Source: Candidatus Saccharimonadota bacterium
GTDB taxonomy: Bacteria > Patescibacteriota > Gracilibacteria > Absconditabacterales > Absconditicoccaceae
NCBI GenBank assembly: GCA_030429145.1
Contig: JAUIDC010000001.1
Location: forward strand, 570,001-602,000
DNA length: 32,000 nucleotides
Direction: 5' to 3'
The position numbers were made by a program, and so were the translations under genes. Shown here one piece after another: positions 1 through 32,000 of the stretch. Each line of letters opens with the position of its first letter. Position 1 is the first letter of the stretch. Below the pieces are notes generated by a model. It was not told the origin of the DNA. It made no database searches and saw only the letters and a program-made list of their open reading frames with translations.

Positions 1-87
1 TATGGCACGATGATAGAAGGTTTGTGGCCGTTTGTCATCATGTCATTTTAGTTTTATTTACCATATTTAATTACTTGTTTAACTCCT

Positions 88-2193
88 ATGGCAGAATTTA
101 AACCCTTAAATGTAGTCAGAAATGTAGGTATTATCGCGCATATTGATGCGGGAAAAACTACAACAACTGAGCGTATTCTTTACTATACTGGTAAGAACCA
201 TAAAATAGGTGAGGTTCACGAAGGTGAAGCTACTATGGACTGGATGGAACAAGAGCAGGAAAGAGGTATTACTATTACTTCTGCTGCGACTACTTGTTTC
301 TGGAGAGACCACCAGGTAAATATTATCGATACCCCAGGTCACGTGGACTTTACTATTGAGGTAGAGCGTTCTCTTCGTGTTCTCGACGGTGCGGTATGTG
401 TACTTTCTTCTTCTGACGCTGTACAGCCTCAGACAGAAACAGTATGGAGACAGGCTGATAAATATCACGTGCCTCGTATGTGTTTCGTAAATAAGATCGA
501 CAAGATCGGTGCAGACTTCAAGATGTGTATTGACGACATCAAAGAGAGACTTTCAGGTAAGGCGGTAGCATTGCAGCTTCCATACGGTGAGTCTTCAGAG
601 TTTAAAGGTATCGTTAGCCTTTTCTCTATGAGATATTATACGTTTGAAGGTGCAAATGGTGAGCAACAAGTAGAACATGATATCCCTGAAGATTTCAGAG
701 CAGAGTGTGAAGAGTATAGAGAAAAACTTCTCGATGCTGCTTCTGCATTTGATGATGAACTTGCTGAGAAATATCTTGCAGGTGAGGAGATTTCTATTGA
801 GCTTTTGAAGAAGGCTATCAGAAAGGGTGTGGTAACAAATGAACTGTATCCTGTACTTGTTGGTTCTGCTCTTAGAAATGCTGGTGTTCAGCTTATGCTT
901 GATGCTATGGTTGATTTCCTTCCTTCGCCACTTGATATTGGTAATGTACACGGTACAGATATCGATGATCCAGAGAAAAAGATGGAGAGAGAGCCTTCAA
1001 ATAGTGCTCCTGCATCGGCTTTGGCATTTAAGATCATGACGGACCCATTTGTAGGTACATTGACGTTTGTTCGTGTTTACTCAGGTGTAGTGAAATCAGG
1101 TGATTCGTTACTCAATCCAAGAACTGGAAATAGAGAGCGTATCGGACGTTTGCTCTTGATGCATGCAAATAAGAGAGAAGAAGTTTCTGAGATTCCAGCA
1201 GGACACATCTGTGCCTTCCTCGGTCTTAAAGACGTGAAGACGGGTGACACGCTTTGTGATGTGAAAGACACTATCATGCTTGAGCGTATGGAGTTCCCTG
1301 ATCCAGTGATCAATGTGGCAGTAGAGCCTGCTTCAAAGAAAGATCAGGAGAAGATGGGGCTTGGACTTTCAAAGCTTGCATATGAAGATCCTTCATTCCG
1401 TTTCTATACTGATGAGGAGTCTGGACAGACTATCATCGCAGGTATGGGTGAGCTTCACTTGGAAATTATTATTGACCGTTTGAAGAGAGAACATAAGGTA
1501 GAGGCTGTGACTGGTAAGCCACAGGTAGCCTATAGAGAAGCTATCTCTCAAAATGCTGACGGTGAAGGTAAATTCGTTCGTCAGTCTGGTGGACGTGGTC
1601 AGTATGGACATGTACTCATCCATCTTGAAAAGCTTGAAGAAGAAGGAAAGATCTATGAGTTCCGTGATGATGTAACTGGTGGTATCATTCCTAAGGAGTT
1701 TATCCCAGCTATCGATAAGGGTGCTCAGGAGGTTATCAAGCAGGGTCCTATTGCAGGATATCCAGTGATTGGTGTAAGAGTTGCTCCATTTGATGGTTCA
1801 TACCATGATGTAGACTCGTCAGAAGTTGCGTTTAAGGTTGCTACATATAGAGCATTCAAGGATGCCTTCATGAAAGCTGGTCCAACGCTTCTTGAGCCAG
1901 TGATGAGCGTTGAAGTAACAACTCCTGAAGAGTATATGGGTGATGTGATGGGTGACCTTTCTTCAAGAAGAGGACTTATCGGTGCTCAGGATCAGAGAGG
2001 AAATGCTATGATCATCAAGGCAAAAGTACCACTTTCAGAGATGTTTGGTTACTCAACACAACTTCGTTCTATGACACAAGGTAGAGCATCATACTCTATG
2101 GAGTTCGCTTCATACGAGAAGGTGCCAAACAACGTTGCAGACAAGATCATCGAAGAGAGAAAAGGAAAGATCAAAGGATTGGATGAAGAGTAA
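88..2193 (+). CDS. fusA: Translation elongation factor G
   Basis: Uninterrupted 701-aa ORF with GTPase motifs [17 protein letters not shown] and NKIDK, plus typical EF-G domains III-V text. TAA stop. No in-frame TGA. Confidence 0.97.
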
Positions 2194-2209
2194 AAGATTA
2201 TACTACTGG

Positions 2210-2241
2210 AAAGTCTCTCCCTTAAAGGAGAGACTTTTTTG
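2210..2241 (+). terminator. Rho-independent terminator after fusA
   Basis: 9-bp stem agtctctcc (2212-2220) / ggagagact (2227-2235), 6-nt loop, then a T-run (2236-2240). Confidence 0.75.
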
Positions 2242-2249
2242 TTATATAG

Positions 2250-2273
2250 AAAAAGTCCTCCTTGTGGAGGACT
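2250..2273 (-). terminator. Putative terminator of the convergent minus-strand gene
   Basis: 8-bp stem agtcctcc (2254-2261) / ggaggact (2266-2273) with loop ttgt. A short T-tract follows on the minus strand (plus-strand A-run 2250-2253). Confidence 0.5.
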
Positions 2274-2965: not shown

Positions 2966-3439
2966 CTATTTATTCATGTTTTCAATGTATTCCAACACCT
3001 CATTTGCGTGTCATTTTGCTTTTACTTCTTCCCACTTATACAAAACCTTTCCCTCATTGTCAAGGAGATAGGTGTTTCTTAGTGTTCACATATACTCTCT
3101 TCCCATAAATTTCTTCTTGCCTTCTGCTTCAAATATGGCATGGAGGACCTTCTCTTTGTCAGAAACAAGCCCAATGGAAAGTTCTTGTTTTTCCTGAAAA
3201 CCACAGTGTGACTTTGTTGAGTCTTTACTTACGCCAACAATTTGGGCTCCGACTTTCTCAAACTCTTTTTTACTAGCAGAGAATTCTTTTCCTTCGATTG
3301 TACACCCAGGTGTGTTATCTTTTGGATAAAAATAAAGCACGGTGTAGCGTGCCTGAGACAAAAGGTCATTCATAGATATTTCTTCAGTGTTTCCCTGAGG
3401 AGATACGTAAGAGACAACTGTTTCAAGTAGGTTCACCAT
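2966..3439 (-). CDS. bcp: Peroxiredoxin, Bcp/AhpC-TSA family (recoded; 2 in-frame TGA=Gly)
   Basis: Active-site text YFYPKDNTPGCTIEGKEF. The standard-code ORF stops at TGA 3086-3088. Reading through it gives ...GREYM-G-TLRNTYLLDNEGKVLYKWEEVKAK-G-HANEVLEYIENMNK, the canonical Bcp C-terminus, with the second TGA at 3011-3013. TAG stop at 2966-2968. Confidence 0.9.
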
Positions 3440-3495
3440 GCTGATTAATAATTATGTAAAAAGTGCTACTAATTACTAATGGTTGGGGCTCTTTT

Positions 3496-3894
3496 TTAGA
3501 GACTTCCGCTTGGAGTATAGCTATCGCTAAGAGGAGATGAGCTTTGTGTATTGAAGAAGTCTCCAAAGCCTTCTGAGCCGACACCCATAATTCTTTTGAT
3601 GATCTGTCCAGCTCTATTGAAGATGTTTTGTGCCGTATAGTATTGATATCCTGCTACTTTCATCTGCTTGAAGAGTATTGGAAATACAAAAAGCAGAACC
3701 AGTGTAACAATGATTCCGAGAATAGTATATCTGATATTCTTTATTGCTTTTTGGATGACGTCGTCTTTTCCGTCTGAGAAAATGAACTGAAAGATAGCGC
3801 GAAAAAGAGAGTAGATAGCTCCGGCAAATATGATAATGATGAGTATAGCCAACACGGTAAGGATAATATCCTGTATAGTGGTGTAGTTAGTCAT
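3496..3894 (-). CDS. Small two-TM membrane protein; topology resembles TrbC/VirB2-like (T4SS-pilin-like) proteins common in CPR genomes
   Basis: 132-aa ORF with two hydrophobic helices flanking ...FIFSDGKDDVIQKAIKNIRYTILGIIV.... The family call rests on remembered motif similarity only. Confidence 0.55.
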   Translation of the reverse strand: MTNYTTIQDIILTVLAILIIIIFAGAIYSLFRAIFQFIFSDGKDDVIQKAIKNIRYTILGIIVTLVLLFVFPILFKQMKVAGYQYYTAQNIFNRAGQIIKRIMGVGSEGFGDFFNTQSSSPLSDSYTPSGSL

Positions 3895-3942
3895 CCCGGG
3901 CTATATGGTGAAGAAAATAAAGTGGGTTTTGAGAAGATGATA

Positions 3943-4245
3943 TTATTTACCTTCTTGTTCCTTCTTTGGCTTTCTGTTCTTCGTTTTCAGTGTATAGTAG
4001 TTTTTGAAAAGTTCATCTTTTGTGTGAGTGTGAAGAAGCTTTGCTAGTCTTTCTGAAGGTCTAGCGCCGTTTGCGATGAGCTCTTTTGCTCTGTCTGCAT
4101 TTACTTCCATTTTATGATTGAGAGGATTGTACCATCCAAGTACTTCTGTGTAACCAGCTTTTACTGGCTTAGTATGCTCAGTAACAACGATTCTAAAGAA
4201 AGGACTTTTGGTTCTACCTGCTCTTGCTAGTCTGATAGTCAACAT
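3943..4245 (-). CDS. rpsP: 30S ribosomal protein S16
   Basis: N-terminus MLTIRLARAGRTKSPFFRIVV is typical of S16. 100 aa, TAA stop, no TGA. Confidence 0.93.
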   Translation of the reverse strand: MLTIRLARAGRTKSPFFRIVVTEHTKPVKAGYTEVLGWYNPLNHKMEVNADRAKELIANGARPSERLAKLLHTHTKDELFKNYYTLKTKNRKPKKEQEGK

Positions 4246-4276
4246 TGTTTACACTGTTTGATAACAAATAAATGAA

Positions 4277-4459
4277 TTATTTCAATTTTTCCTTAGATTT
4301 GTGTAGGGTATGAGTTCTACACTGGTTGCAATATTTTTTGATTTCTAATTTCGGATCATTTACTTTGTTTATCATGACAACATAGTTTTGCTTTCCACAT
4401 GTTGTACAAAGGAGTCCTACGTTAATTCTTGCTCCTTTCTTTTTCTTTGTTCCTGCCAT
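4277..4459 (-). CDS. rpmG: 50S ribosomal protein L33
   Basis: 60 aa. The CTTCGKQNY...KKYCNQCRTHTLHK zinc-ribbon pattern is typical of L33. TAA stop. Confidence 0.9.
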   Translation of the reverse strand: MAGTKKKKGARINVGLLCTTCGKQNYVVMINKVNDPKLEIKKYCNQCRTHTLHKSKEKLK

Positions 4460-4540
4460 TGGTGATGTCGTTTGTACTGATAAATATAAATTGATTATTC
4501 GTTATCAATATGGTCTGTACATTGATAAGGGATAATGAAT

Positions 4541-4614
4541 TGGCTTTGGGTAGACTTGAACCACCGACCTCGCCCTTATGAGAGGCGCGCTCTAACCAGC
4601 TGAGCTACAAAGCC
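4541..4614 (-). tRNA. tRNA with anticodon CAU (elongator Met type; lysidine-modified Ile2 not excluded); CCA not encoded
   Basis: The reverse complement is GGCTTTGTAGCTCAGCTGGTTAGAGCGCGCCTCTCATAAGGGCGAGGTCGGTGGTTCAAGTCTACCCAAAGCCA. It folds as a cloverleaf with acceptor GGCTTTG/CAAAGCC, anticodon loop CTCATAA, T-loop TTCAAGT and A73. Confidence 0.9.
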
Positions 4615-4633
4615 ATAGTATATGGGTATATAA

Positions 4634-4721
4634 TGGCGGTGAGGGCGGGATTCGAACCCGCGGTACCTTGCGGTACGACTCGTTAGCAGTGAGCTGACTT
4701 CGACCACTCATCCACCTCACC
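4634..4721 (-). tRNA. tRNA-Ser (anticodon GCU), long variable arm, CCA encoded
   Basis: The reverse complement is GGTGAGGTGGATGAGTGGTCGAAGTCAGCTCACTGCTAACGAGTCGTACCGCAAGGTACCGCGGGTTCGAATCCCGCCCTCACCGCCA. Features: acceptor GGTGAGG/CCTCACC, anticodon loop CTGCTAA, variable-arm hairpin GTACC-GCAA-GGTAC, T-arm GCGGG-TTCGAAT-CCCGC. There is one A:C mismatch at the base of the anticodon stem. Confidence 0.9.
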
Positions 4722-5505: not shown

Positions 5506-6243
5506 ATGGAAATAGTGCGTATCCAATGATTGAAAAAAGTATTTCGTAAATGGAATAAAAAAATACCTGTACTAATAGGGGTAGATTTTTCAGTGAAGCA
5601 GGGTGAAATCTACGGGTTTTTGGGTGCCAATGGTGTCGGGAAAACAACACTTCTCAAGTGTCTCTTTCACTATATTTCACATCAGGGAGATGTTGAAATT
5701 TTCGGAACGAAAGACTACTATCATCAAAAATATTTTACCCGTATCGGTTACGCACCCGAAGTGACCAATCTTTATCCTTTCCTTCGCGGAAAGGAGCTCC
5801 TTCACTACATGGGGAAGCTTGCAGGTATGAAGACAAAGCTCATAGAGAAGAGATCGAAAGAGCTTTTGGACAAGCTTGGGTTGACCTTTGCTGAGGACCG
5901 CTTGATCGGAGCCTATTCAAAGGGAATGAAGCAAAGACTTTCTCTCGCAGCATCACTCATCAATGATCCAGAACTTATCTTCCGAGATGAGCCCATGTCA
6001 GGACTCGATCCACTAGGGCGTATTATCGTCAAGGACCTGATGAAAGAGCTTAAGGAACAAGGGAAAACACTCTTTTTCAACACGCATATTCTCTCAGATG
6101 TGCAAGAGATCGCGGACAGATTTGGTATCCTTCATAAGGGAAAGATTGTACATGAAGATAAACCAAGTAGTATTCAAGGATCACTCGAGGAGTTCTTTAC
6201 GAAGACTATTAGAGATATTGATAAAAATGTGAAGGTGAAGTAG
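5506..6243 (+). CDS. ABC transporter ATP-binding protein (ABC-2/CcmA-like), recoded N-terminus
   Basis: Walker [10 protein letters not shown], signature YSKGMKQRL, Walker [14 protein letters not shown]-loop NTHIL. ATG 5506 read through TGA 5527-5529 gives MEIVRIQ-G-LKKVF, the usual ABC N-terminal strand. TAG stop. Confidence 0.9.
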
Positions 6244-6408: not shown

Positions 6409-9400
6409 ATGGGTAACGTGTTAGAACTTAGGTTACAGGCTCCAGGTATCAATGGAATTGATATTAATACAACGGAGATGGCAAAGGATTTTGCTGAACT
6501 ACAAAAGAGGTTCAGTGATGAATTTGCGAAAATGAAGGCAAGGCTTGAGCAGAGCAAGACGCTTGATGAGGCAAAGAAATTTCTCAATGATGTGCCTTTG
6601 TATGCTGATGCTGGAAATCTTACTTTGAAAGTGGGAGATAGTTATATCAAAGCAAAAGATAAGGAAGAATTTGATAAATATAAGAACGATATCGAAACGA
6701 CTATGTCGGAGATGAATAAGAAACTTGCTGAGTATGAGCAGAAGATGCTTGAAGAGCAAAAAAAGACCACAGATAACTCAAAGGGTGAGCTTGATGAGGT
6801 AAAGAAAAATGTGACGATTGAAAAGAAAGAGCAGGATGGTATTGTTCGAGAGTATGACAGGCAGACAGGTATTTCTACGTTTACGTTGGAAAATTGGATT
6901 CGCTTGAATCAGCAGAAACAGTGAGATGCTGGTAGTTCGTTCATGGTTGATCCTGCAGGCAAGATGCAAAGTAGACAAGCAAAGCAGCTTGATAGAAGAA
7001 TTGATAGACATATGGACATCAAGAACGAAAAAAGAAAAGCAAGAAAGTTAGAGAAGGATGCGAGAAAAGCAGAAAAGCTGAGAGACAATGTCGCAAGACA
7101 AAAAGACGCCATGGCTCAGATAGGTGGAGATGTAATGGGTGCCGCTGAAAATAGAAAGCAGACGCTCTACTATGAACAAGTCGCAAAACTTGCTATGGAG
7201 GAGTTTAAAAAAGGTAAATATAACGCAGAAGATACTGTCTATATCAACACATACAATCCACTGTTTACTGTCGAGGGATTAAATCCTTCTGGTAAGGTTG
7301 GTATTAGACTCACCCTTGATCAGGTTGCGCAGTACAACGAGAACATGAGAATCTCTAATGATCCTAGATTGGCACCATATCTTTCACAAGAAGACAAAGA
7401 AGTCATCAATAAGGGCGGTATCTTAGGTGCTGGAGTTGACTGGATGGTACAGCATACTAACTATCCTCCAGAAAGTGCACCAGCATTGAAATCAGCTGCA
7501 AAACTTGGTGCGATCATCGGACTAGGTATCCTTGGATGGCAGACGATTAAGAGAGTATTCAATATTGGTGGTAAGTATTCAGCTGGTGAAAGACGAGGTT
7601 GGGGACTTGGTGCACTTGGTGTGTTAGTAGGAGTCCCTGCACTTACTGGTCAGCGTATCGATCAGCTCCTTTTCAGTGGGGATGCAAAGCTTGCATGGGA
7701 AAAGACAAAAGATCTCTTCTCATCTATGGGTATAGAAACGGGAGAACTTCTTTGAAATACCGACGAGAAAGTTATGGATCCTGCTATGGGTAATCTACTC
7801 TTTGGTGGTTTAACCGTAGAGGAAGCAAGAAAATATATCACCTATAAAGATGGCAAGTACACTATGAGACAAAGTGATTTTACTAACTATCTTATAGAGC
7901 AGGAGGCAAAGGAGACGGATCCTGTGAAGAAACAAACATGGAAAGATAAATTAGCTCTTTGGAAGAAGGCCATCCTAGAAAAGAAGGCTGACAAGATTGG
8001 AAACAATTGGGGGAAAAGTATTGGACTCCATGAAGCAGCAGATAAGGATAAAACGACAGAAGAGCTCTATACTGCCTATCTTGAAGGTCTTCACCTTGGT
8101 GCAGGGCTCTTGGCAGGCGATAAGAAATTGAAGATCAAAGACCTTGATGCATTCAATGCATATGTACGTGAGCAGATTGTTGATAAGGGAAGAGATCCTG
8201 CAAGTATCACAAAGAAGGAACTTTTGGAGAAAGATCTCCTTGAAGAGGTTGTCGAAGAAGGCACGAAAGATGCAGATACGAAAGAGGATAATAATAACAC
8301 AAAAAATAATAAACAAAACAACAAACCTGCTGACAATACTGGTACAGCAGAAGATGTTGGAACTCGAGAAAAGGTTACCAATCGAACATCATCAAACTGG
8401 AAGAAGTTTAAGGGAGCTGTCGCTGCGACGGGTGCAACTATTGCGGGGTGGTTTGGTATGAAAAAGAAACCCGATTCTCCACAACTGAAAGCAGCAAAGG
8501 ATAAACTCCAAGAGATGAAAGATAATCTTGCTGAGCTAGAGGCGATGGATGAGACAAAGAGAAAACAGGTTGCAACAGCAGAAGACATTAAGGAAGCAAA
8601 GGATCAGATAAAAGATGCTGAGTATCAGTTGACGCAGATAGAAGCTATGGACAAGGCGATTGATCCTGTCTTGGAGCCACTAGTGAAAAACAAGAAGCTC
8701 TCACAAAATATGGCAGAGCAATTGACGGAAGCAAAAAACAATCTTAATCTCCAGTACGAACTGATCAATCGTAACAATCAACATGCTATGATCCACTTTG
8801 TGGAGGATCATGGACAGCTCTTTGTAGCAAGTTACAACGAACAGTTGCCTATAACTATCGCGGAAAATGCTGACAAAAAGACATTTACAGCGTCTTTGGC
8901 AGACTGTCCACTTCAGTTCAATACGATGGAAAGTCTTGTGCAGACAGCAAATTTTGTAAACTTCCTCGTAATGAACTATCAGTACACTTCGCAGGAAGCA
9001 AATCCGTTCTATGTCGATGGTGATGAGATTTCTATGAGCGGTCCTGGTATAGATAAAGATATGCTTGAGAACTTGTATCCAGATATTCGTCAGCCAAGAA
9101 CTCAGAAGTTTGTAGACTGGTTGAATAATAAAAAGGGTTCCATGGGCGTTTCAATCTGGCTGGAAACAGGAAGACCAAATAATGATGTCTTGAGAACAGT
9201 CAAAGAGCTAGAGCGTGTGAAGTTGGACTCTAGTATATATGGTTGACTTATCTCAGCCCTTCCGTGACAATATGCACGTAAGAAGATTAGCACTATGGAT
9301 GAGAGCGCTTTGAGAAAAAATGCACAGGGAGAAGTGATTGGATATGGTAAGATCGAGGCTGCGTTTGATGGTCAAGGCCTTGTGTTTAAAACACATGGTA

Positions 9401-9756
9401 GAGAGACTGCTATCATGAAAGATGGGAGAGAGTGGAAGGTAGGAGATTTTAAATACTCACTGGAAACGCCACAAGAAGCTCTTTATATAGCTAACTTTGT
9501 TAACTACTGTAAGAGGTATCTTGAATATGCTACCACTGGTACAGAGCCATTTAATATGTCGTTTACTGATAAATATCTTGAGTTTGCTCAGCATTCCGAC
9601 AGAGAGTATCGATGGGGTCTGTCAGACATTAAGAACGACCTGAAACTCGCAAGAAAAGAAGATCTTATCAGAATGTCCAATGTCTTTGCCAATAAAACAG
9701 TCAGAAAAGAGTTCGCGGCATTTCTCAATAGGACATATCCTAAGTGGCATGGATAA
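6409..9756 (+). CDS. Giant hypothetical protein A1 (1115 aa; coiled-coil-like, two Gly-rich hydrophobic segments, duplicated C-terminal module); 4 TGA=Gly
   Basis: Standard-code fragments 6409-6924, 6943-7755, 7774-9246 and 9295-9756 are all in frame 1. They are joined only by TGA (6922, 7753, 9244, 9265), with no TAA/TAG in the gaps (checked codon by codon). First real stop is TAA 9754-9756. Hydrophobic stretches: LGAIIGLGILGW and GWGLGALGVLVGVPAL. Confidence 0.8.
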
Positions 9757-9779
9757 GTATTTACTAATTGATACGCATT

Positions 9780-11819
9780 ATGTGATTTAACGATGTAGAG
9801 AAGCTACAGCCAAAAGATCAAAAAGAAACTCAGAAGAATACTTCTGAAGTTTCTGATAATGCGAAAGTGGATAAGATGCAGGCGACAGATCAAACTACTA
9901 AGGAAACAGAGATCAGTTTGATAGAGCTACAAAAGAGAATTCAACAGATGAAGGCTTCAAAGGAGTATAATGATGAGGACTTAGAGAACTTAGAAAAAGA
10001 TATTCTTGCCGCTAAAAATAATAAAGAAGTGCTCGAAAGAAAGGCGAAACAATTAGATAGTCTTGCAAAGAAGAAAGATCAGACGACAGAAAATCCATCT
10101 CTCTGGAGAAGGTTTCGGTATGGTAGCTTTCTTGGAAATATGATGGACAAGATAGGCTGGGAGTCATGAAAAGAGCGAGCTGATAAAAAGCTACATGAGA
10201 AAAAAGATACTACCAAAAGAGGGTTTCGAGGAAAAGTAGGAGACGCATTTCTTTTTGCTGGCGCATTTCTCCTAGGTAAAAAAACCTTAGGAAAGCTTCA
10301 GGATTGGTTTGCTGAAAAATTTGGAGATGAGAAAAAGGATAAAAAGCCAGATCAACCTAAGACTGTTGTAGATACTGGACAAACAGATGTCGCTCCACAA
10401 GATCAGAATCATACAACTCCTGATAACAATTTAGGAGCAGTGTTGGAGGATGATAAGACGAATCAACCACCATTGCAACATGGAGAGCAGTCGGAAATAG
10501 ATAAAGCGATAGTAGAAGAGGATAAGCTACGTGGAGACGGAGTGAATGATCTCTATATTCTTTCTCGTCTCTTAGGGATGGGATTTGTTCCAAGTAATCT
10601 CTATAGACGACGTCCTGCAAGATTTATGACAAATGCACCATGGAATTTTAAGGTTGCTTTGTCAGCGCTATTGCCATCTATGCGTGAAAGAGTAGTTCGT
10701 GAAAAAGCATATCTTATCTCTCAGTGAGTTAATCAGTATGACTATGATGCTCATCTCAATAAGCTCAGTGCTTTAGAGCAAGATATTAAGACAGGAAAGA
10801 TAACCTCTTTTGATCAGATAAAGAAGAACTATCCAGATTTAATCGATACAAAACCTTCTCGTATAGAGAAATTACTTCGTGATAAAAAATCACCACTCAA
10901 GAGAGTGAAGAAAGAGGCGGAAACAAAGATTGAAACTCTACAAGATCGTGAGCAGGCCATTAGACAAATCGATGGTGAGATGAAGAGTCTCCAAAAAGAG
11001 GCTGCGGCCAAGTATAAAGCACTAGAAGATTTAGATAAAGCCGCTGTCAAAGACCCAGCAAAGAAAAAACAATTGCAGGTGGAGTTAGAAAAAATTACAA
11101 AAGATTTTCAACGTAAACAAGCAGAACTTTATAAAAAAACAGGCGTGGCGCTACAGGGAGTTTCTAACTCTGATATTGTGAAACTCCAAAGATATCAAAT
11201 GGTAGATCATTTAGTTAAAAACAATGGAGGCCGTTTGAAGTTGATAGAGAAGATCAATGGAAGAGGTGGGAGAATTATGATGAGAGTTGGTCTGGCAGGA
11301 TTGTTCTTTAGAGCAGCTGATGATATCGCAGATCAAGGTATTCTTTCAAAGGAAACAGCACTTGATGCTGCAGATCTGGGTATCTGACTTATTCCAGTGG
11401 CTGGTGGTATTTATGACCTTGGTATGGCAATTTATGGAAAGGACCTCAATGGTAGACAGATGTCGACAGCGGATAGGCGAATAAGATGAACAGTGTGAGT
11501 TGGAACTGCTGTATTAGATTTATTCTCATTTGGTGTCGCAGGTACTGCAGTGAGAGCATGAGTCAAAACTACAACGAGAGTTGTAAAGATAGTGAATAAG
11601 ACCGTAGACGCAGAGAAAGCTATTACCAGATGACTGAAGATTGCCGATGATGTCTATAAAGGTACGAAGGTTGTCACTCATGGGGTGATGCTTGGAGGCT
11701 TGACCTACGGTGTTGCTATCAATGCATATGACCTTACCATCGCTTTGAAAGACGGAAGTGAACCGGTCATCGAGGAGATTAAAGCAAACAATACGGATGC
11801 AAGCAAATCAATTACATAA
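9780..11819 (+). CDS. Hypothetical protein A2 (679 aa; coiled-coil N-half, C-terminal pre-toxin-TG-like Gly-rich hydrophobic module); 8 TGA=Gly
   Basis: Starts ATG-TGA-TTT (MGF...) at 9780; an alternative TTG start is at 9768. Fragments 9867-10169, 10440-10727 and 10905-11387 plus the gaps form one frame-3 reading with TGA at 9783, 10167, 10725, 11385, 11487, 11496, 11559 and 11631. TAA stop 11817-11819. All gaps were checked codon by codon. Confidence 0.78.
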
Positions 11820-20955: not shown

Positions 20956-20957
20956 TA

Positions 20958-20985: not shown

Positions 20986-21016
20986 CTATAAATAATTTAT
21001 CATCTTTCGGCTTATT

Positions 21017-21943
21017 ATGGCTAAAAATCATAAAAACCAACGTCATCATCACGAAACTTCTCAGGACAGTGCTGAGAAGAAGAAACAGTGAAATGAAAAG
21101 CTGGTGGAAGAGACAAAAGAAGAGCTGGCAGATACTCTGAAAGAAGAGAAGGAGTCTGGTCATAAGGCAGAAAAGCATGAGAATCATGATGAAAATAGAG
21201 ATGCAAATGATACAGAGCAGAAGATCGCAATGAAGAAAGCTCAGCTTCATGCGGCAGAGCCTGTACTAGAAGAGAAAGACCCAGAACCTGCAGCAAAAAA
21301 ACCTTCAAAATCAAAGAAGGAAAGAAAGATAGATCGAAACCCATTGAATTGGGTAAGACATATTGGTACAAGAGCTCTTTCTGGTATCGCTTGATTGCCT
21401 TCAAGAGTTGCAGCAAAGTTCAACCATATAGTGGCAAGACCACAGCAACTAGTAAGCGGAAAGTTTTATAAAGATTTGGGAAAAAACGTTATTAAGACTC
21501 CTGGAGCGATGGTGACGACTGTTACCGGTGCAGTATACAAGCCACATCGTGATAAGGTGAAATTTGAAGATAATTTTAAGGATTATGGTCCGACATTTGG
21601 GCCCGATGCAAAAGATAAGAACTGGTTTGTGAGGAATGGGAAAAAGGCTTTATGGTTCGGTGGCAAATTTGCTATGCCCACCCTGACAGCAGGTACGTGG
21701 TCACTATTTCCTAAGTTCTTTGCCAATGTAGGCAGAGGTCTCAACCATGTTATTCATGAGACGTTTGAAGGCATCAGAGACTCTAAATGGCATTGGAATC
21801 CTAAGAATTGGAACCTTAAGACGTGGAAGTTTAGTAAGACAAAAGAGTCCTTTGGAAAAGCTTTCTCACGAAATAAGAAAGGTAAGTCTCCCGAAGGTAA
21901 GACTATTGCTCTCTCGCCAAAAGAAGAAAAGAAAGCTGCATAG
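21017..21943 (+). CDS. Hypothetical basic protein (308 aa; K/E/H-rich N-half, W/K/G-rich C-half); 2 TGA=Gly
   Basis: From ATG 21017, fragments 21104-21394 and 21395-21943 are in the same frame and joined by TGA 21392, with another TGA at 21089. TAG stop. Confidence 0.65.
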
Positions 21944-22018: not shown

Positions 22019-22906
22019 ATGGCGAACGCAAGACAGATAAAAACGAAGATAAAGTCAGTAAAGAACCTACAGAAGATCACGAGAGCACTCGAGATAGTTT
22101 CAACAGTGAAGCTACAAAAGACAAAGAAACGTACTGAGCACTATCGTGAGTTCATGGAGGAATTCCTTCGCGTCATGCGTGTAGCCCATGAGAGAATTGG
22201 GCTTTTTGATGAGATTGAAGATCAGAACGGAAGAAGACTCATCGTTGTCGTGTCTTCGGAAAGAGGACTAGCTGGTTCGCTCAATAGTAAACTCTTCAAG
22301 CATATCCTTGGAAAGTATGCTGATTGGAAAGACAAAACAGATATTTACTGCATTGGAAAGAAAGCGGTAGAATTTTTCACCCGCAATGGCTTCAATGTTG
22401 TTGGTAAACTTCACCTGCAAGATGAGTTCGAAGAGAAGGATGCAAAACCGCTTTTCGACTATCTTCAGGACTCTCTGGAGAATAAAACTCATGCAAAGAT
22501 CAAAGTCTATTTCAACTATTTTAAAAATACTATCACCCAGGTGCCACTGAGATTTAAGCTCTATCCCCTCGATAACGAAAGCTTCAATACCTTCGCAAAA
22601 GATATTGATCTTAACTTGGAGACATATAAAGAGGCTATCCCTTCGTATCAGGACTTTGTCTACGAACCAACGAAGAAGGAGCTGAGAAATGCACTATTAA
22701 AACAACTTGCTGAATATATCATTTATGGAGCAATTTTGCAGAATAAGACTGGTGAGTTTGCAGCTCGTATGCTCGCTATGAAAAATGCTAAGGACAATGC
22801 AAAGAAGACCTCTGAGGCGTTGACGATTAAGTTTAACAAAGCTCGTCAAGCTGCTATTACACAGGAGATATCCGAAATTGTCTCTGCAAAAATTGCTATT
22901 GAATAA
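22019..22906 (+). CDS. atpG: F0F1 ATP synthase gamma subunit
   Basis: MANARQIKTKIKSVKNLQKITRALEIVSTVKLQK... at the N-terminus and ...ARMLAMKNAKDNA...KFNKARQAAITQEISEIVSAKIAIE at the C-terminus are the canonical gamma-subunit ends. ATG 22019 is preferred over the track's TTG 21983. No TGA. Confidence 0.9.
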   Translation: MANARQIKTKIKSVKNLQKITRALEIVSTVKLQKTKKRTEHYREFMEEFLRVMRVAHERIGLFDEIEDQNGRRLIVVVSSERGLAGSLNSKLFKHILGKYADWKDKTDIYCIGKKAVEFFTRNGFNVVGKLHLQDEFEEKDAKPLFDYLQDSLENKTHAKIKVYFNYFKNTITQVPLRFKLYPLDNESFNTFAKDIDLNLETYKEAIPSYQDFVYEPTKKELRNALLKQLAEYIIYGAILQNKTGEFAARMLAMKNAKDNAKKTSEALTIKFNKARQAAITQEISEIVSAKIAIE

Positions 22907-22920: not shown

Positions 22921-23328
22921 ATGTCAGAATTTTCTACACTTGTACAAACATACTATCAAAATCCCATTAACAATCGTAAAATAGCCGATTGTACTATTTC
23001 TCGTCACGAGGGAAACAGCGTATGTGGCGATGATTTAATGGTCTATCTCAAGATAGAGGACAACAAAATTGTCGATCGATCCTATGAGGGTATGCCATCG
23101 ATGATCACCCAAGCTGCCGCTAGTTTTTTTTCTGAGTTAGTCATAGGTAGATCACTTGATGAGGTCTTGCAGATGAATGAAACAACCATGAAAGAAAATG
23201 ATTTTATCGTCTCTCCAAGACGTAGGAGAGCATCAGTCACAGCTATCTTGGCAACCAGAAACGCAATACACGACTATTTGAAAGATGGCAGAGAGGATGA
23301 CTTTGATGATTTGTTAGTTGATGAGTAG
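22921..23328 (+). CDS. NifU/SufU(IscU)-like protein with only one of three conserved Cys ligands
   Basis: NSVCGDDLMVYLKIEDNKIVDRSYEGMPSMITQAAAS aligns by eye to SufU NPTCGDRIRL...FEGEGCSISMASAS. The second and third Cys positions are Ser (codons 23098-23100 and 23233-23235). Confidence 0.7.
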   Translation: MSEFSTLVQTYYQNPINNRKIADCTISRHEGNSVCGDDLMVYLKIEDNKIVDRSYEGMPSMITQAAASFFSELVIGRSLDEVLQMNETTMKENDFIVSPRRRRASVTAILATRNAIHDYLKDGREDDFDDLLVDE

Positions 23329-23951: not shown

Positions 23952-26900
23952 ATGTCATTTGCTCCACAGCAGCCGAAACCGGATCTGTATGCGTTAGATC
24001 AGCTTATTTTGCAATGATGGAAAGATAATCATATTTTTGAGAAATCTATTGAGCAGAGACCAGAGGATCAACCATATCGTTTTTATGATGGACCTCCATT
24101 TATTACGGGATTGCCTCACTATGGTCATCTTGCAGCTTCAGTTGCAAAAGACGCGATACCAAGATTTTGGACGATGAAAGGAAAGAGAGTGGATCGTGTA
24201 TGGTGATGGGACTGTCACGGTATTCCTATTGAACAAAAAGTACAATCAAAGCTTGGGCTTGAGTCGAATATAGATATTGAGAAGGCTGGTATAGATCGCT
24301 TTATAGAAGAGTGTTATACATATACTCGTGGCATGTCGGCTGACTGGAACTACTATATTGATAATATTGGACGCTGGGTGGATATGGAAAATCCATACCG
24401 TACGATGGACAATGACTATATGGAGTCTGTGTGGCGAGTCTTTAAGGCGCTCCGAGAAAAGTGATTGATCTATAAAGGAAAGCGTGTGTCTATGTACTCA
24501 ACGAAGTTAGAGACTCCTATCTCTAGTTTTGAGGTTGCTATGGATGACACCTATAGTGACGTAAATGATCCTACGGTAACAGTTATGTTTGATCTTTCTG
24601 CGAACGGTGATGAGTGGAAAGATACCTATGCATTGGCATGGACGACGACACCTTGGACTATCCCTGCAAATATTGCGCTTGCTGTAAACAAGGAGCTAAC
24701 GTATGCAAAGGTTGTATGTGATGCAAGTAGTTTTATAGTAGCAGAGAAGAGAGTAGAAGAAGTATTTAAAGGGAGGGTTTTTGAAATTGTTGAGACATTT
24801 ACAGGAGATGAACTTGTATGAATGTCATATAAGCCACCATTTGATTATCTCTATGGTAAGACGAACAATGAAAAAGACCATAAGATCTATCATGCAGAGT
24901 TTATTACTGATGAGGATGGTACTGGTATTGCTCATGAGGCACCAGAGTTTGGTGATGTAGACTTTGAAATGGCGCAGAAAGCATGATTGACCATCACCGA
25001 AGCAATGGACAGTAGTGGACACTATACGACGCTCATTGATGATTTGGTTGGAACATTCTATCGCGATGCAAATCCGATTGTTATGGAGAGATTGCAAACT
25101 ATGTGAAGACTTTTCGCAAAGTGAAATATAACACATCGTGTGGCGTTTTGTCCAAGATCAAATACGCCTCTTGTATACAAGGCTCAAGATAGTTGGTTTG
25201 TGAACATTCAAAAATTGAAGCCAAGATTGCTCGAAAAAAATGAAGAAATAAACTGGTTTCCAAATCACTTCAAGTATGGTCGTTTCCAAAAGTCTATCGA
25301 GGCAGCGCCAGATTGGGGCATCTCTCGTACAAGATACTGGGGGACACCTATGCCTATCTATGTATCTGAAGACGGGAAAGATATGATCATCATCTGATCG
25401 AGAGAGGAGCTCTATGAGTTCAGTAAAGAAGGAAGTGCTAATGTGGAGAAAAGAGAAGTAGAGGGTAAAGTAGTTTATTGGAATACAACAAGAGACGAGG
25501 AACTCAACATGCACCGTCCGTATATTGATGACGTATGGCTTTCAAAAGAAGGAAAAAAGTATACTCGTATCTCAGAGGTATTAGACTGTTGGGTAGAGTC
25601 TGCAAGTATGCCATATGCACAGATTCATTATCCATTTGAAAACAAAGAAAAGTTTGAGGGACAATTTCCTGCAGATTACATTGTCGAGTATACGTGACAG
25701 ATACGTGCATGGTTTTATGTGATGCATGTGATAGGTGTCGCATTGTTTGATAAACCTGCATTTAAAAACGTAACGGTTACGTGAGTACTTGCTGGTAATG
25801 ATGGACGCAAGATGTCAAAGAGCTTTGGAAACTATCCAGATCCAAGAGACTCTTTAGAGCAGTATGGTGGCGATGCAATTAGAATGTATCTTTTGTCATC
25901 ATCTCTTTTCGCTGGCGGAGATCCAGCGGTCTCTGAGGATTACTTTGGAGAGGCCCTCAAAAATTATATTCTTCCTTTCTGGAATGCGTTCTACTTTTTT
26001 GTCACCTATGCAAATATTGATAAGTGGGATGAAAAAGACAAAGTATATGATCCTGCAAAAGTGAAGCATCCACTAGATAGGTTTTTGTATGCAAAGGTAC
26101 AGGAGTTGATTACAACCGTAGAGGAATCGATGCAATGATATGATCTTATGCGTTCATCTCGTGCATTGGGCAACTTCTTAGATGACTTAACCAATCGATA
26201 TATCCGTCGTAGTAGAAGAAGATTTTGGAAAGAGGAAGAAGATCAAGATAAAAAAGATGCTTATGCAACTCTCTATTATGCGCTTGTCAACTTCTGTCAA
26301 GTCGCTGCTCCATTTATGCCGTTTGTCACTGAGTATATCTATCAAGTGCTTACTGGGAAAGAGTCTGTGCATTTGACAGACTGGCCAACAGCGCATTTGC
26401 AAGATACTGATAAAGAGCTTTTACAAAAAACAAAACAAGCACAGGATGTCATCTCTATCGTTTTGGCAGCACGTTCGAGAAAGAACATTCGTGTGCGTCA
26501 ACCATTGCAAAGTGTTACTATTGGAGTGGAGATAGATGAGTACTTCCAAGCTATTGTCGCTGATGAGTGTAATGTAAAAGAGGTTTCGATAGATGCTACT
26601 ATCAATGCATTGGTGACAAAGATATGTAAACCTGATGGCAAGTATGTAGGCGAGACTTTTGGTGCAAAGACAAAGGAGATATTTGCTGCAGCAAAGTCGG
26701 GTAACTTTACGGAAAATGAAGACGGTAGTGTTACAGTTGCCGGAGAGACTCTCCCTTCATGAACATATGAAATCAGTTATATAAAGGCTGACGCTTCACA
26801 AGATCTAGAAGTCGATAACGGTATTGTTGTGAAAATAGATTGGGCCATAACGCCAGAGCTAGAGCTCGAAGGTTATGCAAGAGATCTTGTGAGATTGATA

Positions 26901-27930: not shown

Positions 27931-29550
27931 ATGTGGTGATTTTTGTGAGGACTCTGAATCTTTCTGCTGGGAATGAAAACTATGGAGAATACACTTTTGC
28001 AGTATGGAGTTCCTACATTGAAGAGAATTCTTCGCGGTTTCACAAATAAGAAATGGAAGTCAGTCATCTCGGGCACTATTTTAGCGAGTATCACACAGAG
28101 TAGTACGATAGTTTCTGTTATGACTGTTGTGTTTGTCGGTGCGGGCATTGTGACATTAGCAAGTGGTGTCGGTGTGATTATTGGTGCGAATGTCGGTTCT
28201 ACACTTTTGGGTATTGTGCTTTGATGAGCGATGGCGGGTTCCATTAAGCTCTCCAGTTTCGCTCTTCCTATGCTTGCAGCGGGTGCGATCGGAGAACTCT
28301 TTTTCAAAAAAAAGAAGAAGATCTATTTTGTAACGATGTTGCTTCTTTCGTTTGGTTTGATTTTTTATGGAATTAGTCTCATCAACGGAACTGTTTCTGC
28401 ATATGCCATGAGTATCGATATGGCTGTTATAAATCAGCGGGGTATCCTATGATATTTTCTGATAGGTGTGCTGTTAACTGCCATGATGCACTCAAGTGAT
28501 ACGATGTTAGTACTTGCACTGAGCTTTCTTGCGCAAGGTGTGATTGGACTGCCTGAGGCTATTGCTATCATGATAGGTGCTAATATCGGTACTACTATCA
28601 GTGCAATTGAATGATCTCGAGGTGGTTCAAAAGAACAAAAGCAGGTTGCACTCAGTCATTTCCTTTTCAATGTTATCTCGGCTATTATCGCACTACCGCT
28701 ACTATGATGGTCAATACAGTTAGTAGATTTCTTCTTTGATCTTCCGAAGCAAAACATATGGGCGGTAGTTATCTATGATTTCTGGTATAATGTGCTTGGT
28801 GCATTGTTATTCTATCCATTTATGAAACAGTATGTGTGGCTTCTGGAAAGACTTGTCTCGCCTAAGAAAGATGAACTTGTTCTTCGTTCTACAAGCATTG
28901 ATGCCGAGCACTTGAAAGAAGCGGTTGCTGACTTTCGCCAAGATACTATGCTTTTGTTAGATAAGGTTATTACATTCAACCTCCAGGTGCTCAATATCGA
29001 CCCGAAGAAATTGAAGCTAGTTGACAAGAAACTATTGGATGAGGAAAAAGAGGAACAGTCGTACAATGTTATCCGTACGATAGAGGAGACACTTATGCAA
29101 ACAGTGATTAGTCTCTACAAGACACACAAAACTCATACCAGATACCATACAGAGCTTTTCACGCTCCGTGAGGCAGTTGAACGCATGGTGTACAGTGCTA
29201 AAACTCTTAAGGATATCTCTCATAATCTCGATGAGCTGCGTGCCTCAAAGATGGCACTGCTGACAAAGTTTCTCAAGGAGTTCGCGAAAGAATCGATCGA
29301 TATATACCAGACTATTTCGAGGTATAGAGAAGGCGAGGCAGAGGCATCGCACGATGCGAAACTCCACTGATCGCTTAAGATGCTTATGGATGCTGATGAA
29401 CACTTTCTGTCAGAAATTGGAACCAGGGTATCGAAAGAGCTTCTTGCTAACCGTAATCTTTCCTCTCTCCTGCATCTTTCTCAGTGACTCAATAGGTCTC
29501 ACAAAGCTATGATACACACGATAGAGCTTCTCTATAACAAAGATAACTAG
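27931..29550 (+). CDS. Na+/phosphate cotransporter family protein with PhoU-like C-terminal region (539 aa); 10 TGA=Gly
   Basis: The stitched N-terminus MW-G-FL-G-GL-G-IFLLGMKTMENTL...ITQSSTIVSVMTV... followed later by IGANIGTTISA...ALSHFLFNV is the duplicated Na_Pi_cotrans signature. TGA at 27937, 27946, 27955, 28222, 28225, 28450, 28612, 28705, 29368 and 29485. TAG stop 29548-29550. Confidence 0.88.
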
Positions 29551-29567
29551 TACCCTTTTATAAGAAA

Positions 29568-29595
29568 AAGCGCTCCCATACAGGAGGCTTTTTTA
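29568..29595 (+). terminator. Putative terminator between convergent cotransporter and pth genes
   Basis: Stem aagcgctcc / ggaggctt with one bulged G, loop cataca, then T6 (29589-29594) overlapping the pth stop codon. Confidence 0.45.
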
Positions 29596-30123
29596 TTTCT
29601 CGATAAACGCATATATCATATCTCATATCTTTTGCTCATTGTCAGCAAGTGTTTGCAACTCTCCCTTGCTAAATGGATAGAGTACATAATCTACCACCTC
29701 TTCTTTTGTCTCTGGACGTCCCACTCCAATCCTTATGCGAGAGAATGTGTTCGTTCCAAGCTTAGCAATAATGTCTCTGAGTCCATTGTGTCCAGCATGT
29801 CCACCTCAGCTTTTCATCTGTATCTGCCCACTAGGAAGATCAATCTCATCATGAATAACGAGAATATCTTCAGGCTTTATCTTGAAAAACTGTGCTATCT
29901 TACCGACACTTTCACCTGACTTATTCATAAAGGTGAGGGGCTTGCAGATGATAATATCTTCATCTTTTATCTTTCATTTTCCTATTTCCGCATTCCGATC
30001 CTTGTTTGCCGTCCAGCTTATTTTCTCTCGCTTGGCAAAGCTATCCAACGCTAAAAACCCCGCATTGTGGCGGGTATTCTCATATTTCTTTCCTGGATTC
30101 CCTAGTCAGACAATTAGTTTCAT
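29593..30123 (-). CDS. pth: Peptidyl-tRNA hydrolase (176 aa); 4 TGA=Gly
   Basis: The minus strand gives [23 protein letters not shown]...[16 protein letters not shown]...RIGVGRP. TGA at 30106-30108, 29974-29976, 29806-29808 and 29623-29625. The ORF track misses this gene entirely and shows spurious plus-strand ORFs instead. TAA stop 29593-29595. Confidence 0.93.
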
Positions 30124-30132
30124 CACTGAGGA

Positions 30133-32000
30133 TTACTCCATAACATAAAACTCCATGATATCTCCTTCGAGGATTTTCTTGCTGACTCTGACTTTCATAC
30201 CACACTCGTAGCCAGCTTGAATTTCGTCTACGTTCTCCGCTTCACGTTTGAGAGAGGTAACCTTACCCGTTGCATAGATCTCTGCCTCTTCGCCTTCACC
30301 GTGTCGGATTCTAAATGAGGCTCCATTTTTGATCTTGCCGTCGATAACCTTTCCACCGATAATCATTTCTTTCTCTTTCTTGTAGAAGATACCGAGCACT
30401 TCAAGTTTACCAAGGTATACTTCTTTCTCTTCGATCACGATCATACCCTGAAGAATTTGCTCGATATAATCAGTCATCTCATAGATGATATCGTAGTTTT
30501 TTACTGTCGTTTTCATCTGTTCCGCTTTCTTGGCAAGCGAAGCAGTGATAGTCGTGTTGAAACCAAGGAGGAGGGCGTTTGACGCCTGTCCAAGAGAGAG
30601 GTCACTGTCTCCAAAATTACCTACATCAGAGTGAACGATCTTGATAGAAAGATTTTCTGGTACCTCAATATTTTCGATAGCATATTTGACTGCCTCGAGA
30701 GAGCCGTACGAGTCTGCTTTGAGGATCAGGTTGAGCTGTGCGTCATCTCATGATTGGATCTTTGACATGAGCTGAGCGAGTCCACCTTCGTCTTGCTTCT
30801 CTTTCTCTTTTTCAAGGATCTTTGAGATTTTGTTTTGTGCTTCACGCTCGTTGTTTACCACTTCTGCAACACGTCCCGGTTCTGGTACATCACTGAGACC
30901 GAGAATCATCACAGGATCTCCACCTTCCACATGTTTTGTCTCTTTTCCTGTCCGGTCGAGCATCTTTCTTACTTTTCCATATGTGTTGTGAATCATCACA
31001 ATATCTCCGACATTGAGTTTTCCGGTGAGAAGGAGAATAGTTGAGAGGACACCCTGTTTGCTATCTTTTGTTGCTTCAAGAACAATACCAACACCATTTC
31101 TTGTCGGATTGTACTTCAGTTCAAGCATCTCAGCGTGTAGTGAAATCGTTTCGAGAAGCTCGTCTACGCCTTGTCCAGTCATGGCAGATACAGGGACGAG
31201 AGGGATATTTCCTCCCCAGTCCTCAGGAGTGAGGCCGTGCTCAGCGAGTTGACCTTTGATGTTGTCTATATTGCCTGTTCCTTTGTCTATCTTCGTGATA
31301 GCAACAATGATAGGTACTCCTGCATCCTTTGCATGATTGATAGCTTCTACTGTTTGTTGCTTGATACCATCGTCAACAGCGATAACAATAACAACAATAT
31401 TTGTAATCTTCGCACCACGTGCACGAAGAGACGTGAAAAGTTCGTGTCCTGGAGTGTCGATGAAAGTGATCTTTTTATCGTTATGTTCAATTTGAGACGC
31501 TCCGATAGACTGCGTGATACCACCAGCTTCTCCACTCACAACATTCGTTTGTCTGAGGTGATCGAGAAGCTTTGTCTTACCATGATCGACGTGACCCATG
31601 ATAGTGACAACAGGAGGTCTTTCTTTGAGGTTTTCTGCTTCTTTGTCAGCAGCGAGTATCGCATTGACGTTTCCTTCTAGCATATCATCCACTGAGATGC
31701 TTGTTGCCTCCTTTCTTACCTTGACGCCGAGCTCTTCGCCAATAAGGTTTGCTGTATCAAAATCGATAGATGAGTTGATGTTCACCATAATTTTATTTTG
31801 AAGAAATTTCTTCATGAGCTCATTGAACGATACACCCATCTTTTCAGAAAACTCTTTCACAGTAATGCTATCACCAATGATGATTTCCTGTTTCTTCACA
31901 AGATTGCCTGATACACCGGCTTCTTTTACTGGTCTTTGTACTGGGATAGACTGCTCTGCAGGAGCTGCTTTTTCTTTCGTTGGAGCAGCTCATTTGCCGT
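30133..32000 (-). CDS. infB: Translation initiation factor IF-2 (5' end beyond window); at least 2 TGA=Gly in window
   Basis: G-domain motifs [20 protein letters not shown] and TKID. Fragments 30748-31899 and 30133-30516 share a frame and are joined through TGA 30748-30750. The gap translates as [20 protein letters not shown]..., typical of IF-2 domain C1. The frame stays open to the window edge, with a TGA at 31990-31992. TAA stop 30133-30135, 10 nt before pth. Confidence 0.93.

Follow-up and report, generated by a model that had tools for sequence, protein, structure and literature searches.

Predicted reading of UGA as glycine and of CGA and CGG as tryptophan in a chromosomal window of an uncultured Absconditabacterales (SR1) bacterium

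Background

The Absconditabacteria (SR1) were reported, by analysis with Codetta, to translate UGA as glycine and both CGA and CGG as tryptophan (Shulgina & Eddy 2021, eLife, PMC8629427), and this double reassignment is restated in PMC13092985. In these bacteria CGA is found at fewer than 37 and CGG at fewer than 7 per 10,000 codons, AGA is the main arginine codon, and a tRNA-Arg(GCG) serves CGU and CGC (PMC8629427). In the Gracilibacteria, their sister group, only some reassignments of CGG were reported and none of CGA (PMC8629427). The present study concerns the genetic code of a 32,000-nucleotide stretch of DNA, hereafter the window, which corresponds to forward-strand positions 570,001–602,000 of contig JAUIDC010000001.1 in assembly GCA_030429145.1. 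An earlier reading of the same sequence, referred to below as the original prediction, had assigned it to genetic code 25, with TGA as a glycine codon. The analyses described here indicate that the window very probably comes from the chromosome of an uncultured bacterium of the Absconditabacterales (candidate division SR1, within the Candidate Phyla Radiation (CPR), or Patescibacteria), in which UGA would encode glycine, CGA and CGG would encode tryptophan, and translation would stop only at UAA and UAG.

The machinery for reading UGA as glycine, in the summary of Campbell et al. 2013 that is offered by PMC13293708, comprises a tRNA-Gly(UCA) together with the absence of release factor 2 (RF2). 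Glycine identity elements of such tRNAs are G1:C72, C2:G71, G3:C70 and U73, and the tryptophan identity of tRNAs with UCG or CCG anticodons involves G73 and the lack of A20 (PMC8629427). In the CPR, CGU and CGC are reported to be served by tRNA-Arg(GCG) in place of an ACG tRNA with inosine modification (PMC8629427).

Methods

A scan of a genome collection for IleRS returned 61 loci, which are designated by L numbers where they need to be told apart. Fourteen IleRS homologues with an identity of at least 44% made up the recoded set, and 43 more distant homologues made up the standard-code set. Locus L020, with a guanine-plus-cytosine (GC) content of 62%, was left out, as its 15 'in-frame TGA' codons were an artefact of frame choice in DNA that is poor in TAA and TAG. 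Because circularity was to be avoided, the TGA codons of the window were masked as X and compared against standard-code sequences only. Log-odds scores, given in nats and computed from IleRS column profiles, and profile hidden Markov model (HMM) bit scores, computed with hmmsearch, were both based on the 43 standard-code sequences. The closest genomes were L004 (OZ246420.1, a closed chromosome of 1.1 Mb, IleRS 81% identical) and L001 (JAGOPC010000002.1, 79%), and codon-pair counts with these two were made over seven shared genes, using validated gene frames only.

Results

Reading frames and stop codons

The window has a GC content of 40.1%. Once TAA and TAG were taken as the only stops, 25 protein genes and two tRNA genes were found to cover 94.9% of it. 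Sixteen of the 25 genes contain in-frame TGA, 85 codons in all, and there were no internal TAA or TAG codons and no frameshifts. The genes end in TAA (20 genes) or TAG (five genes) and never in TGA; in ileS and pth the alignment with relatives continues past the C-terminal TGA codons (27081 and 29623, respectively). Two statements of the original prediction were thereby borne out, namely that genes broken by TGA keep a single frame, since all of the cited TGA codons were in frame in the genes named, and that TAA and TAG are the only stops.

The ileS gene carries 14 in-frame TGA and no TAA or TAG, yet its product can be aligned over its whole length with IleRS proteins of known structure (E = 3.6e-208). 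Among the out-of-frame stop triplets in the window, only about one in two is TGA, so the chance of such a TGA-only pattern in ileS would be about 0.5^14 if the codons were random nonsense. All 14 recoded relatives have between 4 and 40 in-frame TGA in their IleRS genes, and all 43 standard-code homologues have none. Translation with table 11 yields 15 pieces of ileS, 23 of the open reading frame (ORF) at 12888-15848 and five of pth, the longest of the pth pieces having 60 amino acids; pth is thereby lost, and this fragmentation had also been foreseen.

TGA codons at glycine positions

Eleven TGA codons of the window could be scored with the IleRS profile, and glycine was the best residue at +12.4 nats, followed by aspartate at -5.7, with tryptophan at -31.0. 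In the same profile the control codon TGG gave tryptophan at +56. When the TGA codons were pooled with those of the 14 relatives (n = 156), glycine reached +194 and tryptophan -469; the control codons TGG, GGN, GAT, AAA, TGT and AGA, also pooled with relatives, each returned their standard meaning. The bit score of the window IleRS was 1190.4 with TGA as glycine, 1165.4 with TGA masked, 1162.0 with TGA as cysteine and 1145.2 with TGA as tryptophan, and each of the other meanings tried (aspartate, serine, alanine, arginine and cysteine) scored below glycine.

Codon-pair counts with L004 and L001 pointed in the same direction. At 46 of 64 sites a TGA of the window was matched by GGN or TGA, and at none of the 64 by TGG; of the 314 GGN sites used as a control, 262 likewise held GGN or TGA. 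For the TGA codons of ileS alone, 27 of 28 cells in the two genomes held GGN or TGA. On these comparisons TGA is taken to be a glycine codon in the window, and code 4, in which it would be tryptophan, was rejected; the original prediction had already argued against it.

The further proposal that TGA falls on family-invariant glycines was upheld for some genes and not for others. In Pth, TGA 30106 (within VGLGNPG) stands opposite glycine in all four solved structures, and both TGA codons of the Bcp peroxiredoxin stand opposite glycine in all five solved Bcp structures. In alignments of the M23 peptidase with solved structures, the glycine of the H-x-G-x-D motif corresponds to TGA 12467, and TGA 12692, in T-G-PHLHYE, corresponds to glycine in ShyA and 2gu1 and to glutamate in the degenerate DipM. 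The proposal did not hold for the ABC transporter ATPase, in which TGA 5527 lies in a variable column (histidine, asparagine or glutamate in solved structures), nor for TGA 27946 of the Na/Pi cotransporter, which is replaced by GCG (alanine) in both L004 and L001, nor for TGA 25695 of IleRS. The column of the last contains glycine 17, aspartate 14 and alanine 10 times in standard-code homologues, and in 8c8v, the best-matching solved structure, this TGA faces the conserved aspartate of EGxDQxRGWF; in all 14 recoded relatives the codon opposite it is GGN or TGA. Another IleRS codon, TGA 24015, is GGA in L001, and most homologues have phenylalanine or tyrosine in its column. Five of the 12 IleRS TGA codons visible in alignments with solved structures face glycine, and the others face glutamine, aspartate, glutamate or lysine. 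When the TGA columns were tabulated against homologues, as the original prediction had suggested, tryptophan was never found opposite TGA in a solved structure.

At 25674-25720 the IleRS motif reads EYTGQIRAWFY in the window and in CPR relatives, and EGIDQTRGWFY in solved structures of the bacterial and eukaryote type. This change, by which two conserved glycines and the aspartate are replaced, runs through the whole subfamily, its standard-code members included.

CGA and CGG codons at tryptophan positions

The first hint of a second reassignment came from the control rows of the codon-pair counts, in which TGG of the window stood opposite apparent arginine codons of the relatives and CGA of the window opposite tryptophan. 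At 18 of 24 sites a CGA or CGG of the window was matched in L004 and L001 by TGG, CGA or CGG, and at none of the 24 by CGT, CGC, AGA or AGG. Conversely, the latter four codons were matched by TGG, CGA or CGG at none of 200 sites (Fisher's exact test, p = 1.8e-18), and they interchanged among themselves at 153 of the 200. AGA scored +34 for arginine in the IleRS profile. CGU, CGC, AGA and AGG are thus, by codon counts and profile score, retained as arginine codons. Across the 14 relatives, the partners of CGA in the window were TGG (19) and CGA (12), with no true arginine codon among the ten commonest, and the partners of TGG were TGG (145), CGA (59) and CGG (12).

The IleRS profile led to the same assignment. 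The three CGA codons of the window IleRS scored +9.1 nats for tryptophan and -6.8 for arginine, and their translation as tryptophan raised the IleRS score by 14 bits. In the IleRS genes of the relatives, CGA (n = 96) scored +251.7 for tryptophan and -250.3 for arginine, and CGG (n = 13) scored +21.4 and -31.5, respectively. In a screen of all 64 codons with this profile, only TGA, CGA and CGG deviated consistently from the standard code; signals for GGC, ACC and AGG (n = 2-7 in the window) were rejected as small-sample noise, as they were gone in the pooled relatives.

Two of the three IleRS CGA codons of the window lie on conserved tryptophan columns, and one of these, 26196, faces the conserved tryptophan of '...SNWYVRRSR...'. 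Among the 21 conserved tryptophan columns of IleRS, the window has TGG at 17 and CGA at two. The earlier statement that conserved tryptophans use TGG was therefore correct for most columns, and TGG is not the sole tryptophan codon. Similar replacements were seen in other genes, including 1) CGA 23077 of the NifU_N protein, which is TGG in L001 and L009; 2) CGA 30028 of pth, which is TGG in L004 and L001 and faces lysine in a solved structure; 3) CGG 29995 of pth, with TGG as its counterpart in L004 and phenylalanine opposite it in solved structure 8axp; and 4) CGG 30952 of infB, which is TGG in L004. In the ABC transporter ATPase, CGA 5983 lies directly 5' of the 'DEP' of Walker B, in a hydrophobic strand, where solved homologues have leucine.

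Both codons are rare in the window, with 30.8 CGA and 6.0 CGG per 10,000 codons, and AGA predominates among the arginine codons. The assignment to code 25 stands for UGA and fails for CGA and probably for CGG, which behave as tryptophan codons: table 25 would write arginine at 37 of the 132 tryptophan positions of the window (28%), conserved tryptophans of IleRS included.

Phylogenetic placement and taxonomic labels

In a neighbour-joining tree of IleRS, the 15 recoded sequences were monophyletic (100/100), and the window grouped with L001 and L004 (100/100). Loci L036 and L042, which were deposited as Absconditabacterales, flank the basal split, and the clade that they span includes the window, which can be placed within the Absconditabacterales with moderate confidence. 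The original prediction of an SR1- or Gracilibacteria-like lineage agreed with this clade; CGA on tryptophan columns and the IleRS tree jointly allow the broader 'SR1 or Gracilibacteria' to be narrowed to the Absconditabacterales.

In public records the nearest genomes go under 'Candidatus Peribacteria' or 'Patescibacteria group' and not under Absconditabacteria. Six of the loci (L002, L003, L004, L032, L041 and L050) were deposited as 'uncultured Candidatus Peribacteria bacterium'; these have IleRS genes with 4-32 in-frame TGA and with CGA on conserved tryptophan columns, and they cluster with the loci named as Absconditabacterales. In the NCBI taxonomy 'Candidatus Peribacteria' is placed under Peregrinibacteriota. 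Peribacteria are reported to keep UGA as a stop codon. Under the current scheme of the Genome Taxonomy Database (GTDB), the Peregrinibacteria lineage bears the class name Gracilibacteria, and SR1 and BD1-5 belong to class JAEDAM01 (PMC13293708). Because the recoding of UGA to glycine has been described only in the SR1/BD1-5 lineage, to which it is restricted according to PMC13293708, the 'Peribacteria' labels are probably an artefact of name mapping that follows from the Gracilibacteria/JAEDAM01 renaming in GTDB, and not a new distribution of the code.

Gene content of the window

The features of the window are listed in Table 1. A permissive Rfam search of 3452-4540 found no RNA family in this stretch, which contains three small minus-strand genes; an impression that it was non-coding had arisen under an ORF cut-off of at least 80 codons and was rejected. 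The tRNA-Met(CAT) and tRNA-Ser(GCT) genes are the sole RNA genes of the window, and neither tRNA decodes a reassigned codon.

Table 1. Coordinates of genes and reassigned codons in the window
Feature	Position	Strand	Remarks
fusA (EF-G)	88-2193	+	701 codons; 0 TGA, 0 CGA/CGG
bcp peroxiredoxin (AhpC-TSA)	2966-3439	-	PF00578, E = 1.8e-26; TGA 3086-3088, 3011-3013
Putative membrane protein, 132 aa	3496-3894	-	Without TGA; from the table-11 ORF list
Putative rpsP (S16-like)	3943-4245	-	Without TGA; named by motif reading
Putative rpmG (L33-like)	4277-4459	-	Without TGA; named by motif reading
tRNA-Met(CAT)	4540-4615	-	ARAGORN, Rfam
tRNA-Ser(GCT)	4634-4721	-	ARAGORN, Rfam
ABC transporter ATPase	5506-6243	+	PF00005; TGA 5527, CGA 5983
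Large ORF, 1115 aa	6409-9756	+	4 TGA, 5 CGA
Large ORF, 679 aa	9780-11819	+	8 TGA, 5 CGA/CGG
M23 peptidase	11843-12865	+	PF01551, E = 1.2e-29; TGA 12374, 12422, 12467, 12692; CGA 12146
Large ORF, 986 aa	12888-15848	+	22 TGA (28% of its glycine codons); most TGA-rich gene of the window
Small gene	15930-16448	-	Lone minus-strand gene inside 6409-21943
Large ORF, 1067 aa	17752-20955	+	5 TGA, 5 CGA
atpG (ATP synthase gamma)	22019-22906	+	PF00231, E = 1.5e-70; full length; 0 TGA
NifU_N protein	22921-23328	+	PF01592; CGA 23077
ileS, 1053 aa	23952-27113	+	Match to PDB 8c8v, E = 3.6e-208
ileS in-frame TGA	24015, 24204, 24462, 24819, 24984, 25104, 25122, 25395, 25695, 25782, 26136, 26760, 26961, 27081		
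ileS in-frame CGA	24435, 24453, 26196		
Na/Pi cotransporter	27931-29550	+	PF02690, E = 4.6e-43; 10 TGA, including 27946 and 27955, CGA 28618, CGG 28438
pth (peptidyl-tRNA hydrolase)	29593-30123	-	PF01195, E = 1.7e-65; TGA 30106, 29974, 29806, 29623; CGA 30028, CGG 29995
infB (IF-2)	30133-31998	-	5' end cut by window edge; 2 TGA, CGA 30304, CGG 30952

The reassigned codons are unevenly distributed among these genes. The translation-core genes fusA, rpsP, rpmG and atpG have neither TGA nor CGA or CGG, and infB has two TGA among 59 glycine codons; genes with the highest expression, such as fusA, avoid the reassigned codons. In ileS, pth, the Na/Pi cotransporter gene and the ORF at 12888-15848, 21-28% of the glycine codons are TGA, and the upper figure rises to 33% once some small orphan genes are included. 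This partition of codons between genes is consistent with decoding tRNAs of low abundance.

A block of 15 kb (6409-21943), made up of the four large ORFs of unknown function and smaller ones around the M23 peptidase gene, has the same GC content as the remainder of the window. Its orphan ORFs matched nothing significantly in Pfam, PHROGs or the PDB sequences, and a lone weak match, to PT-TG in 9780-11819, was below threshold; charged repeat-like stretches and glycine-rich hydrophobic segments were noted by eye in the translations. The homologue of 12888-15848 in L004 is only 31% identical, as compared with 57-82% for the adjoining housekeeping genes, and the block therefore appears to be fast-evolving. 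Its genes may serve the cell surface or the interaction with a host, in an SR1 bacterium living as an epibiont or predator.

The atpG gene next to this block stands alone, the flanking DNA being free of other ATP synthase subunit genes for at least 9 kb in each direction. L004 and L001 lack it at the syntenic place, where a gene of unknown function adjoins the NifU-like gene.

Discussion

Proposed decoding of the three codons

According to the literature on related bacteria, the proposed code would involve the following components. A tRNA-Gly with the anticodon UCA, charged by GlyRS, would read UGA, and RF2 would have been lost. Transfer RNAs with UCG and CCG anticodons would bear tryptophan identity elements, and tRNA-Arg(GCG) would be left with CGU and CGC. 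The reassignments may have arisen through codon capture, at a time of low codon usage. A gene for tRNA-Arg(GCG) was found 3' of ileS in the recoded relatives L032 (21211-21284) and L036 (23409-23482); these two genes and one for tRNA-Gln were the only tRNA genes that ARAGORN detected in 23 loci of the relatives. CGA and CGG may have been free to change meaning because tRNA-Arg(GCG), and no inosine-modified ACG tRNA, decodes CGU and CGC.

Several observations weigh against the proposed code or against its attribution to the Absconditabacterales. Genes for tRNA(UCA), tRNA(UCG/CCG), prfA and prfB were absent from the window and from about 250 kb of DNA of the relatives. The codon assignments were made in silico, and partial or ambiguous decoding is compatible with them. 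Residues other than glycine were encoded opposite TGA in the relatives at 28% of sites, versus 17% for GGN, a slight excess. CGG is represented by only six in-gene codons in the window, with none in IleRS, and the partners of these were TGG (two), CGA (two) and CGG (one), with no arginine codon; small as these numbers are, they too point towards tryptophan. The GC content of the window, 0.40 for one 32 kb stretch, is just above the range of 0.26-0.38 reported for the clades with reassigned CGA and CGG. Finally, the phylogenetic placement leans on a single-gene neighbour-joining tree and on the depositor names of two loci.

Alternative explanations

It is possible that decoding is ambiguous or incomplete, UGA being read as glycine with some termination or some insertion of tryptophan through U34 wobble with UGG, and CGA and CGG as a mixture of tryptophan and arginine, so that the window would represent an intermediate stage. 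Wobble at U34 between UGA (glycine) and UGG (tryptophan) was flagged by Shulgina & Eddy as a potential source of ambiguity, and ambiguous translation, they state, can be excluded only by experiment (PMC8629427). The lower conservation of TGA sites as compared with GGN sites (72% vs 83%) would fit this explanation, as would the lack of reassigned codons in fusA, rpsP, rpmG and atpG, which is expected if such codons are costly. However, TGA and CGA are found at invariant residues, such as those in GWD(C/T)HG and SNWY of IleRS, GLGNPG of Pth and HxGxD of the M23 peptidase, where frequent misreading would be harmful, and substantial competing termination at 85 TGA codons in 16 genes, 14 of them in the essential ileS, would leave a negligible yield of full-length protein. 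Because the reassigned codons occupy invariant catalytic and structural residues of essential enzymes, ambiguous decoding is considered unlikely.

A plain table 25, in which UGA is glycine and CGA and CGG stay arginine, would account for all of the TGA evidence equally well. CGA and CGG are rare, with 37 codons in the window, and several of them are at poorly conserved positions where arginine is possible site by site, as at Pth 30028, which faces lysine. Nevertheless, this explanation is regarded as quite improbable. It is contradicted by the codon-pair counts, in which CGA and CGG were never exchanged with true arginine codons in either direction, and by the negative arginine score of the IleRS CGA codons, two of the three of which are on conserved tryptophan columns. 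At CGA 5983 this reading would also put arginine into the Walker B strand, which is hydrophobic.

The reading of UGA as tryptophan (table 4) is the commonest reassignment of this codon in bacteria, known from Mycoplasma and some insect endosymbionts, and the phenylalanine/tyrosine column at TGA 24015 might be taken in its favour. It can be set aside with near certainty, given the strongly negative tryptophan scores in the window and in the pooled set, an IleRS bit score 20 bits below the masked sequence, the lack of TGG opposite TGA in the close relatives, and the GGA codon that L001 has in place of 24015. As for TGA codons that are true stops under the standard code, reflecting pseudogenes, assembly or sequencing errors, selenocysteine or programmed readthrough, the genes do resemble pseudogenes under table 11, but this is scarcely credible, as the frames are broken by TGA alone, never by TAA or TAG, without frameshifts, the sites are shared by, or are GGN in, relatives from independent assemblies, the essential ileS, pth and infB are affected, and selenocysteine in particular is opposed by a cysteine score below that of the masked sequence at what are glycine columns and by 85 sites in 16 unrelated genes, which is incompatible with recoding that depends on a selenocysteine insertion sequence (SECIS).

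Under the preferred reading, with UGA as glycine and CGA and CGG as tryptophan, a more far-reaching scenario can be outlined, which we hold to be doubtful. In this scenario, the window and its nearest relatives, with a GC content of about 40%, would form an unrecognised recoded subclade, the capture of CGA and CGG would persist above the GC range proposed to have enabled it, and, as the lack of reassigned codons in translation-core genes and their share of up to 28-33% of glycine codons in large, fast-evolving orphan proteins would hint, the supply of tRNA-Gly(UCA) and tRNA-Trp(UCG) would tune the expression of host-interaction genes, so that the reassigned codons would not be a neutral relic.

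Implications for annotation

The contig is not translated correctly by table 11 or by table 25; the latter gives full-length genes, with arginine at 28% of the tryptophan positions. To our knowledge, no standard translation table combines UGA as glycine with CGA and CGG as tryptophan. Because no standard table fits, errors of arginine for tryptophan in this lineage are expected to spread to protein databases, profile models and structure predictions. CGA on tryptophan columns could serve as a cheap marker to distinguish SR1-type from other lineages that read UGA as glycine, and it exposes assembly labels that fit poorly. With regard to biology, the window provides a further example of a known phenomenon and raises no new question, and its value lies mainly in annotation. 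Mildly unexpected features are a GC content at the upper edge of the reported range, the mislabelled close relatives, and a use of reassigned codons that differs between core and large orphan genes.

Comparison with known genetic codes

The code of Mycoplasma, Spiroplasma and several insect endosymbionts (table 4) resembles that of the window in that UGA is a sense codon, in a small genome of low GC content in which RF2 is dispensable, and differs in the meaning of UGA, which is tryptophan there and would be glycine in the window. Anaerococcus and Onthovivens (RFN20 Bacilli) have likewise captured an arginine CGN codon for tryptophan at very low usage (PMC8629427, PMC13092985); in these bacteria only CGG is affected and CGA stays arginine, whereas CGA, CGG and UGA all appear to have changed in the window. 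NCBI table 25 (Campbell et al. 2013 and Rinke et al. 2013, as relayed by PMC13293708) shares UGA as glycine and UAA and UAG as stops, but it keeps CGA and CGG as arginine and would mistranslate 37 codons of the window.

The code described for Absconditabacteria involves the same three codons with the same new meanings. The usage of CGA and CGG in the window is under the limits of fewer than 37 and fewer than 7 per 10,000 codons, AGA is dominant in both, and tRNA-Arg(GCG) is present in L032 and L036, relatives of the window. The window differs from the described members in its slightly higher GC content and in the Peribacteria and Patescibacteria labels of its nearest genomes. In conclusion, both reassignments are already published for Absconditabacteria, and the window is best regarded as coming from another member of this group.

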